From: a virus
Taxonomy: Duplodnaviria; Heunggongvirae; Uroviricota; Caudoviricetes
Direction: 5' to 3' (one strand)
IMG/VR virus record: IMGVR_UViG_2541047941_000003
Location: 1-47,471 of that record
DNA length: 47,471 nucleotides
In this document: piece after piece, positions 46,732 through 47,471 of the stretch
How the letters are laid out: each line of letters begins with the position of its first letter
Position numbering within the stretch: position 1 is the stretch's first letter
Made by a program: the position numbers and the translations under genes
The notes under the pieces: generated by a model
The model's input: the letters and a program-made list of their open reading frames with translations, nothing else
Told to the model about the DNA's origin: nothing
Databases searched by the model: none

Positions 46732-46922
46732 ATTGCAGGATTTTACCGTTGGGTAATTTCATCCATCCATCACCACTGGCAAAAAAAGCCATATCCGGTA
46801 TCTGATTTTCCCCTGTTCCCACATCCCGTTTTGCCGCTTCTCCCAAACCAACCTTTCAAATATTTTTCTGAATCAGGTGATATTTCGCCTCTTCTCCTGT
46901 TTTTACAACAGGAGAAGCACTC

Positions 46923-47471
46923 ATGATTTACGGTTATGCCCGAGTATCAACAAACCACCAGGACACTGAATTGCAACTAACGGCGCTCAAGTCAGCGGGT
47001 TGTGAGAAAATTTTTGAAGAGCATGCCAGCGGGAGGAAATCGAATCGGCCGGTTCTAAAACGGCTGATCGCCACTATGCAGCCGGGGGATGAACTGGTGG
47101 TCTGGAAGCTGGACAGGATAGGCCGCAACGTTCTGCATGCGCTGTTGATGTTCCAGCAGTTACAGGAAAAGGGTATCAACTTCCGCAGTATTACCGATGG
47201 CGTGGATCTCAAAACAGCCAGCGGCCGCTATAACTTTCGTAACATCCTTTCCGCAGCACAATATGAATCTGATCTTAATAGCGAACGTACCTTAGCAGGG
47301 CTGGCCGTAGCCAGGGCAAAATGGCGAGTTGGTGGTCGCAGGCCTAAGTTCACGGATGAGCAATGGCGGGAAATGGGGGAGCGGATGGCAACCGGTGAAT
47401 CACGACAAAGCGTATCAAAAACGTATGGAGTAGGGCTCTCAACTCTGTATAAAAAGTTTCCAGCTAGCTGA
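46923..47471 (+). CDS. Serine recombinase, DNA invertase type (Hin/Gin/Pin family)
   Basis: 182 aa; N-terminal YARVST (catalytic Ser), VVWKLDRIGR, C-terminal HTH GLSTLYKKFPA; stop codon is last 3 bases of window. Confidence 0.85.
   Translation: MIYGYARVSTNHQDTELQLTALKSAGCEKIFEEHASGRKSNRPVLKRLIATMQPGDELVVWKLDRIGRNVLHALLMFQQLQEKGINFRSITDGVDLKTASGRYNFRNILSAAQYESDLNSERTLAGLAVARAKWRVGGRRPKFTDEQWREMGERMATGESRQSVSKTYGVGLSTLYKKFPAS

Follow-up and report, generated by a model that had tools for sequence, protein, structure and literature searches.

The serine DNA invertases Pin of the e14 element, Gin of phage Mu, Cin of P1 and Hin of Salmonella can substitute for one another, and enzymes of this kind carry out strand exchange at the central 2 bp of their recombination sites. 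The invertase locus described here shares with all four the enzyme family, a site organized as 12-2-12 bp and the core AA. In e14, Mu and P1, two sites in inverted orientation enclose alternative tail-fibre genes together with tfa genes. Complete relatives of the present locus have the order fibre constant part, distal site, a segment of ~1.85 kb, proximal site and, 85 bp further on, the invertase gene; the segment contains two alternative fibre C-termini and two tfa genes, and the invertase of such a system flips it and thereby switches host range. A different arrangement is on record for phage phi80 (Lula), whose GenBank annotation (JX871397, the source of all phi80 module facts used here) lists an N-terminal pseudogene fragment of a DUF72 protein (yecE), an internal tail-collar fragment, an inverted repeat (IR3), pinL, the attP core and int. 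The mEp237 record (JQ182730) annotates the invertase and attP, and RefSeq marks the isochorismatase fragment as partial. The orphan-invertase arrangement is therefore already known, since the phi80 record annotates it, and it is ordinary.

The DNA analysed here (the window, 47,471 bp) is an entire prophage in prophage order, extending 47.5 kb from the start codon of the integrase to the stop codon of the invertase. It is a mosaic: the siphovirus mEp237 matches it at 99% over positions 1-5051, 9252-12160 and 46363-47471 and at 96.6% over 15013-17506, and a myovirus-type prophage at the yecE site of JNQH497 matches it at 99.2% over 22234-43026. The rightmost of these blocks, 46363-47471, is the module that concerns us. 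It is 97% identical in phi80 and 99% identical in mEp237, and all three share yecE'/yecD', a fibre fragment, a 26-bp site, IR3 and pinL, followed by attP-int. To the left of 46363 the siphoviruses phi80 and mEp237 carry dinI/msgA together with a side tail fibre of the lambda type, whereas a late region of myovirus type and a UmuD-like ORF are found there in the window. The phi80 attP core is itself absent from the window because the window stops at gene boundaries. Taken together, the features collected in Table 1 make it very probable that the prophage carries an intact-looking orphan Din invertase with a lone proximal crossover site, that the invertible segment has been replaced by a transduction-type scar of host DNA, and that an imperfect palindrome singled out in the initial annotation has no role.

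Table 1. Features at the right end of the window, by position
Feature	Position	Strand	Basis or remark
Fossil attR from a phage integrating in yecE: phage arm of 40 bp (46363-46402) and 21-bp core CACGCAGTTAAAGTGaCGGGC (46403-46423)	46363..46423		att comparison
Captured host DNA, 314 bp: 96 nt from the start of yecE and 222 nt from the end of yecD	46403..46716	-	K-12 match
Joint of yecD and the tail-fibre remnant, formed by illegitimate recombination at an 8-bp microhomology, CGGCGTAA	46709..46716		three-way alignment
Tail-fibre remnant: first 46 codons of an alternative variable part	46709..46846	-	translation compared with 730V1
Imperfect palindrome of the initial annotation, GATTTTACCGTTGGGTAATTTC	46739..46760		chance feature within the tail-fibre remnant
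Din-type crossover site of 26 bp, proximal to the gene (equivalent of pixR), TTCTCCCAAACC AA CCTTTCAAATAT	46838..46863	+	Din-matrix score, relatives
Perfect 11-bp inverted repeat with 5-nt loop ('IR3' in the phi80 record)	46891..46917	+	repeat search, RNA fold
Din-family (Pin/Gin/Hin-type) serine DNA invertase gene	46923..47471	+	182 aa, apparently intact

The invertase ORF comprises 549 uninterrupted bases, its stop codon ending on the final base of the window. Pfam recognizes a catalytic Resolvase domain (7.7e-38) and HTH_7 (1.5e-9); the structure of Mu Gin (3UJ3) aligns over residues 1-181 (E 1.7e-55), and the DNA-binding domain of Hin (1HCR) aligns with the C-terminus, where the helix-turn-helix reads GVGLSTLYKKFPAS. 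Overall identity is 54% to e14 PinE and 51% to Gin. A GYARVS motif places Ser9 opposite Ser9 of Gin, and this serine is invariant in the alignment with PinE, Gin, EC2001 and phi80. The product is a small serine recombinase with its active-site serine in an N-terminal catalytic domain and a helix-turn-helix at the C-terminus, and the description of the gene as a full-length Hin/Pin-type invertase is thus confirmed. Its nearest counterpart is the gene of the 730V1 prophage, which occupies the kch/yciI (phi80 att) site: 548 of 549 nucleotides are identical, and the lone change replaces glycine 134 by tryptophan (G134W). Residue 134 is glycine in 74 of 80 close relatives as well as in PinE and Gin, W134 being a minority allele found in six of the 80. 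We considered W134 as a sign of decay and dropped the idea, as two of the loci with this allele retain both crossover sites; on that comparison the substitution would argue neither for nor against activity. Since the 730V1 gene belongs to a system with a complete segment, near-identity with it also means that any intragenic Fis enhancer of the clade has been retained. The invertase is probably still active.

Candidate crossover sites were sought with a half-site matrix derived from 13 Din-family sites (published in PMC3241671, Table 3), which themselves score +15 to +32 bits. The method is validated by its exact recovery of the published pixL and pixR in K-12 e14, 80 bp upstream of pinE. Applied to the window, it identifies one predicted site of two 12-bp half-sites and a 2-bp core adjoining the 5' end of the invertase gene (contiguous sequence TTCTCCCAAACCAACCTTTCAAATAT), whose start lies 85 bp upstream of the ATG. 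With 16.1 bits this site ranks first among the ~47,400 26-mers of the window, and its inner half (16.8) is the best-scoring half-site. The inner half and the AA core are identical to published e14 pixL/pixR at 14 of 14 positions, the outer half is non-consensus (CC rather than GG beside the core), as it is in the whole clade, and all 26 positions agree with the proximal site of 730V1, a site that has an inverted partner. The leader that follows is likewise 100% identical to that of 730V1. The likeness to e14 goes further than the pix half-site, as both have the site at 80-85 bp before the ATG, with the C-terminal part of a fibre gene starting at it.

Relatives support the assignment. A recognisable site occurs at -85 (+/-1) in 71 of 80 close IMG/VR relatives; 43 of these 71 have an inverted partner 1.3-3.2 kb upstream, typically at ~1.85 kb, and the other 28 have none within ~3.4 kb. 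When the 730V1 prophage is compared with that of EC2001 or with e14, the flanks are collinear and the interior is inverted, the strand switching at the two sites, and the Din-type sites of these relatives are real, natural inversion breakpoints. The EC2001 prophage is homologous to the window from 46837 on, one base before the crossover site; immediately left of the site, 51 bases of the window correspond in inverted orientation to DNA that lies just within the distal site of EC2001. The initial annotation had expected a recombination site near the 5' end of the invertase gene. There is one, but it is not the palindrome proposed at the time; it lies ~80 bp to the right of it.

No partner for this site exists in the window. 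The 14-mer TTCTCCCAAACCAA has no second match with up to two mismatches on either strand of the 47,471 bp; at three mismatches there are six matches, including the true site, against 4.5 expected, which is the level of chance. The matrix scan of the window likewise yielded nothing comparable to the site, and the window contains neither a second crossover site in inverted orientation nor an invertible segment bearing alternative tail-fibre C-termini and tail-fibre assembly genes. A lone site leaves the invertase without a segment to invert in cis, and the notion of an active tail-fibre switch had to be given up by the standard that the initial annotation itself set, the absence of both a partner site and an invertible segment. 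It had been suggested that the partner site and fibre cassettes would be found beyond the right end of the window. They are not there in B18271, a genome 100% identical to the window over 46201-47471, where the invertase is followed, ~130 bp past its stop codon, by a phi80-type att core (attR) and then by the host genes yciI and tonB and the trp operon. A proposal that the whole window is collinear with the B18271 chromosome was rejected, as BLAST comparison with phi80 and mEp237 shows the window to be a 47.5-kb prophage, starting at the integrase gene, of which B18271 contains a deletion derivative.

The lost segment lay to the left of the invertase, as it does in e14 and 730V1. The 730V1 prophage, at the same chromosomal position as that of B18271, keeps a complete 1.86-kb segment with its distal site (position 3266 of locus L007) and is without the yecD/yecE insert. 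The window differs from e14, Mu and P1 in having lost the distal site and kept only 138 bp of the segment. Two sites are present in 730V1, EC2001 and e14, and only the proximal one in phi80, mEp237 and XL10-Gold. An apparent distal site in one IMG/VR locus (L036) proved to be a loose and unconvincing pattern match inside a phi80-type fibre gene. Elsewhere in the window, the tail-fibre-like gene that follows ymfQ (40430-41215) has only its first ~55-60 residues in common with e14 StfP, and no crossover site was found in it.

What survives of the segment is a scrap of a tail-fibre gene that reads inward from the site. Translated, it corresponds, but for a single substitution (F21S), to residues 1-46 of a 730V1 protein of 122 aa named 'phage tail protein'. 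The remnant is 94% identical to its 730V1 counterpart; the phi80 record labels its copy 'internal fragment, phage tail collar domain protein (pseudogene)'. The variable part to which the remnant belongs lay in the former invertible segment and had its start at the crossover site. The other end of the remnant is its joint with yecD, which we resolved by aligning the window with the intact yecD of EC2001 and the intact tail-fibre gene of 730V1. Identity to yecD runs through 46716 and identity to the fibre gene begins at 46709, leaving an overlap of 8 bp (CGGCGTAA); from there the crossover site starts 129 bp further right. The break itself is free of any Din half-site, and the invertase therefore did not make it; with its 8-bp microhomology, the joint is the product of illegitimate recombination and not of a recombinase acting at a site. 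Of 5,426 complete E. coli genomes searched with a query spanning the junction, exactly nine contain the joint; the remaining matches listed cover only the yecD side of the query. The same joint is present in phi80 and mEp237, and it arose once. The earlier suggestion that this region marks either the end of an invertible segment or the event that truncated yecD is therefore partly right, for the region holds both, and neither is at the palindrome.

The host DNA to the left of the joint consists of yecE' (46403-46498) and yecD' (46495-46716), two gene pieces that overlap by 4 nt. The presence of a yecD fragment upstream of the invertase, as originally annotated, is upheld by an Isochorismatase domain on the minus strand (2e-21). 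The piece is 97.1% identical, with nine fixed differences, to the chromosomal yecD-yecE of K-12, JNQH497 and EC2001 and 100% identical to the copy in mEp237. Its left end is an attachment core: CACGCAGTTAAAGTGGCGGGC, the stretch that the JNQH497 prophage has in both attL and attR and that K-12 has in attB, maps to 46403-46423. Both EC2001 and JNQH497 have prophages in yecE whose right arm abuts the same yecE' stub, beyond which come an intact yecD and aspS. In JNQH497, where the order is prophage arm, core, yecE' and intact yecD, the point corresponding to 46716 falls inside the intact yecD gene, and the match to the late region ends at 46716 in nine of the 12 complete E. coli genomes listed (the best 12 of 13 with at least 80% query cover). 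Because the host piece starts at the att core of yecE prophages and is collinear with their flank, it is a scar of the specialised-transduction type. The resemblance is to the bio and gal transducing phages of lambda, which form by aberrant excision and in which the host DNA adjoins the att core, is collinear with what flanks the resident prophage and has a far joint that is illegitimate, at microhomology. Unlike in these phages, the host DNA here is only 314 bp long and includes no complete host gene, it is joined to a phage of different att/int specificity, and the scar is old and common to several phage lineages.

These junctions suggest a sequence of events whose order is read from present-day mosaics and is accordingly tentative. 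An illegitimate crossover would have joined chromosomal yecD, next to a prophage at the yecE site, to the fibre gene of a phage of the phi80-att type at the 8-bp microhomology. The 314 bp of host DNA would thereby have taken the place of the lost segment: the distal site and the rest of the segment would have gone, and the proximal site and 46 codons of the inward-facing fibre part would have been kept. The joint, of single origin, now travels with the pin-attP-int module, as found in phi80, mEp237 and the prophage of the window.

The fossil att site may have had a later part to play. The 40-bp phage arm beside it is 100% identical to JNQH497 and 75-78% identical to mEp237 and phi80, and the switch from arm to host piece is confined to 24 bp (46394-46417) that overlap the left part of the 21-bp core. 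Such a switch would be the trace expected of an integrase-mediated exchange at the fossil att, an explanation that is plausible but unproven, as is its alternative, recombination at very short homology. Extending the first of these, we tentatively raise the possibility, which we regard as rather less than likely, that the fossil attR(yecE) and its 314 bp of host DNA form a portable cassette for exchanging arms with any prophage at yecE. If true, exchange at att would have made the hybrid of a myovirus late region with a siphovirus-derived module for early functions, integration and inversion. The fossil site is a record, mildly interesting in itself, of traffic between phages that integrate at yecE and phages that integrate at the phi80 att.

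Why an intact-looking invertase persists beside a single site can be explained in more than one way. The explanation that fares best, to which we give slightly less than an even chance, is that the gene is a recent and functionless relic that hitch-hikes between attP and the tail genes and is destined to decay. The window offers it no substrate in cis, and the phi80 copy has indeed been truncated: its codon 173 is a stop, and the recognition helix is lost. Expression signals have also been invoked. The Shine-Dalgarno sequence AGGAG of the invertase gene (46911-46915) is sequestered in the 3' arm of the stable leader hairpin (fold -27 kcal/mol, z -4.25 versus shuffles), and a promoter scan of the plus strand from 46300 to the ATG found no sigma-70-like promoter. 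The hairpin, however, is kept in ~75 of 81 relatives, with one compensatory change of a C-G to a T-A pair, and because it is equally present in complete systems it is a normal leader structure, part of the regulation of this clade rather than a symptom of decay. Against a relic stands also the ORF itself, which is intact in mEp237 as it is, with W134, in the window.

It is also conceivable, though in our judgment unlikely, that the orphan enzyme is kept through action in trans on Din-type segments of other prophages, such as e14-like P segments. A compatible site may lie elsewhere in the host chromosome, for example in an e14-like element, and the inner half-site is that of e14 pix. Several observations are in keeping with such a function: the ORF is intact, the 5' region with the site and the Shine-Dalgarno hairpin is 100% identical to that of a complete system, and there is not one premature stop codon in 80 IMG/VR relative loci, yet 28 of the 71 with a recognisable proximal site are partnerless within ~3.4 kb. 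Moreover, the gene differs from its phi80 counterpart by 18 synonymous codon changes and only two non-synonymous ones (W134G and S173*), which points to past purifying selection. The low non-synonymous count may, however, simply reflect recent descent from complete systems, the 730V1 gene being one nucleotide away; loss of the recognition helix in phi80 indicates that loss is tolerated; and the target in trans is putative, the host chromosome not being part of the window.

What the window holds is an orphan invertase, and its annotation should name an orphan invertase of the Pin type, the one crossover site that remains, the pseudogene fragment of a tail-fibre gene and the host-DNA scar yecE'-yecD'. 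To call it a phase-variable tail-fibre switch is unwarranted, and no host-range switching is to be predicted for this prophage. The finding has little importance beyond annotation.

There remains the palindrome, which the initial annotation placed exactly at the end of yecD similarity and likened to hix- and gix-type sites. Identity to yecD ends at 46716 and the palindrome starts 23 bp further to the right. Its arms are complementary at seven of 11 positions. Across the window, 395 22-mers are at least as well paired (8.3 per kb, or one about every 120 bp), against 341-367 in shuffled sequences, and a repeat search of the window with a 6-nt seed did not report it. When the suggested comparison with hix, gix, cix and pix sites was carried out with the Din matrix, the palindrome scored -17.1 bits (centred), a value exceeded by 4,340 of the ~47,400 26-mers and far from the range of real sites given above; the best 26-mer frame within 46725-46775 scores -9.1 bits and reaches only halfway into the palindrome. 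It thus fails as a Din-type site on the matrix, and it fails equally on the consensus sequence, TTC---AAAC- -A -GTTT---GAA. Read on the minus strand, it is the K-L-P-N-G-K-I codons of the 46-codon tail-fibre remnant, and in the gene that is intact in 730V1 the homologous stretch pairs at only six of 11 positions. No second copy or partner of it was found in the window. That it is nevertheless a hix/gix-like site, either one that the invertase recombined with a pseudo-site in yecD, so truncating that gene, or the end of a segment that can still be inverted, is very improbable in spite of its location close to the yecD break and ~165 bp upstream of the invertase gene and of an ACC...GGT flavour that recalls AAACC NN GGTTT, given its score, its chance level of pairing, its coding origin, its lack of a partner and a break that is accounted for by microhomology without any half-site. 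As part of the coding sequence of a gene scrap, the palindrome is a chance feature and not a recombination site. Short imperfect palindromes near breaks in homology are to be expected by chance and call for caution; the real site of the invertase is revealed by comparison with complete relatives.

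The window (1-47471) is a complete prophage, extending from the start codon of the integrase to the stop codon of the invertase. Sequence comparison identifies this prophage as a hybrid, with early and integration regions like those of the siphovirus mEp237 and a late region like that of a prophage of E. coli JNQH497. mEp237 is ~99% identical to the early and integration parts at 1-5051, 9252-12160 and 46363-47471, and 96.6% identical over 15013-17506, while the late region (22234-43026) shows 99.2% identity to the myovirus-type prophage residing in yecE of JNQH497. E. coli B18271 carries a deletion derivative of the window prophage, roughly 16 kb long, that keeps window positions 1-4044, 5560-9234 and 39230-47471. 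In the fossil attR, a JNQH497-type phage arm is joined to an mEp237-type host side, with the changeover falling within 46394-46417; this switch of type suggests that an exchange may have taken place at the att core.

Features of the invertase gene and the adjoining attachment region
Feature	Position	Description
Fossil attR of yecE-integrating phages	46363-46423	40-bp phage arm, then 21-bp core CACGCAGTTAAAGTGaCGGGC
Perfect 11-bp inverted repeat, 5-nt loop	46891-46917	3' arm holds the invertase Shine-Dalgarno AGGAG (46911-46915)
W134 of the invertase	47322-47324 (codon 134)	Glycine in PinE (e14), Gin (Mu) and 74/80 close relatives

Expression of the invertase is probably throttled at translation by the hairpin that the inverted repeat can form. 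The repeat has an RNA fold z-score of −4.25 and is kept in about 75 of 81 relatives, where it occurs in two forms, one with a C-G pair where the other has a compensatory T-A. The invertase itself carries an unusual residue at codon 134, around which glycine-bearing proteins have the motif AKGRVGGR. The W134 allele is present in six IMG/VR loci whose N-terminal halves differ from one another, and two of the six retain both crossover sites.

Among close relatives in IMG/VR (loci L013-L092), 71 have a recognisable proximal crossover site, and 28 of these lack an inverted partner within ~3.4 kb upstream; it would thus seem common for phages of this group to have an orphan invertase adjoining attP. 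The pinL gene of phi80 (JX871397) is cut short by a stop at codon 173, with loss of STLYKKFPAS, a stretch whose counterpart in the alignment is the C-terminal portion of the Hin DNA-binding domain. We take this stretch to be the recognition helix. The invertase of this laboratory phage thus probably cannot bind DNA.

Several other genes were noted. Two small ORFs of 86 and 106 aa (45653-46200) have counterparts of 80-92% identity in many Klebsiella phages. The 106-aa ORF starts GFPSPATDYVEQRL, resembling UmuD/S24 peptidases, and some records label it UmuD-like or S24/S26 peptidase; it has no Pfam match. The interval 41194-44761 contains an acyltransferase gene, set between tail genes but on the other strand, and after it the gene for a 726-aa protein, probably a tail spike. 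This protein, also devoid of Pfam matches, is named 'TolB family' in RefSeq and SGNH/GDSL hydrolase in relatives. The stretch 43026-45632, which takes in the C-terminal region of the 726-aa protein and the following gene, differs from the JNQH497 relative. In E. coli 730V1, a second 'recombinase family protein' gene (6929-7480 of locus L007) is found just past yciI, on the host flank of the phi80-type att site, together with a DNA adenine methyltransferase and a copy of IS903B.
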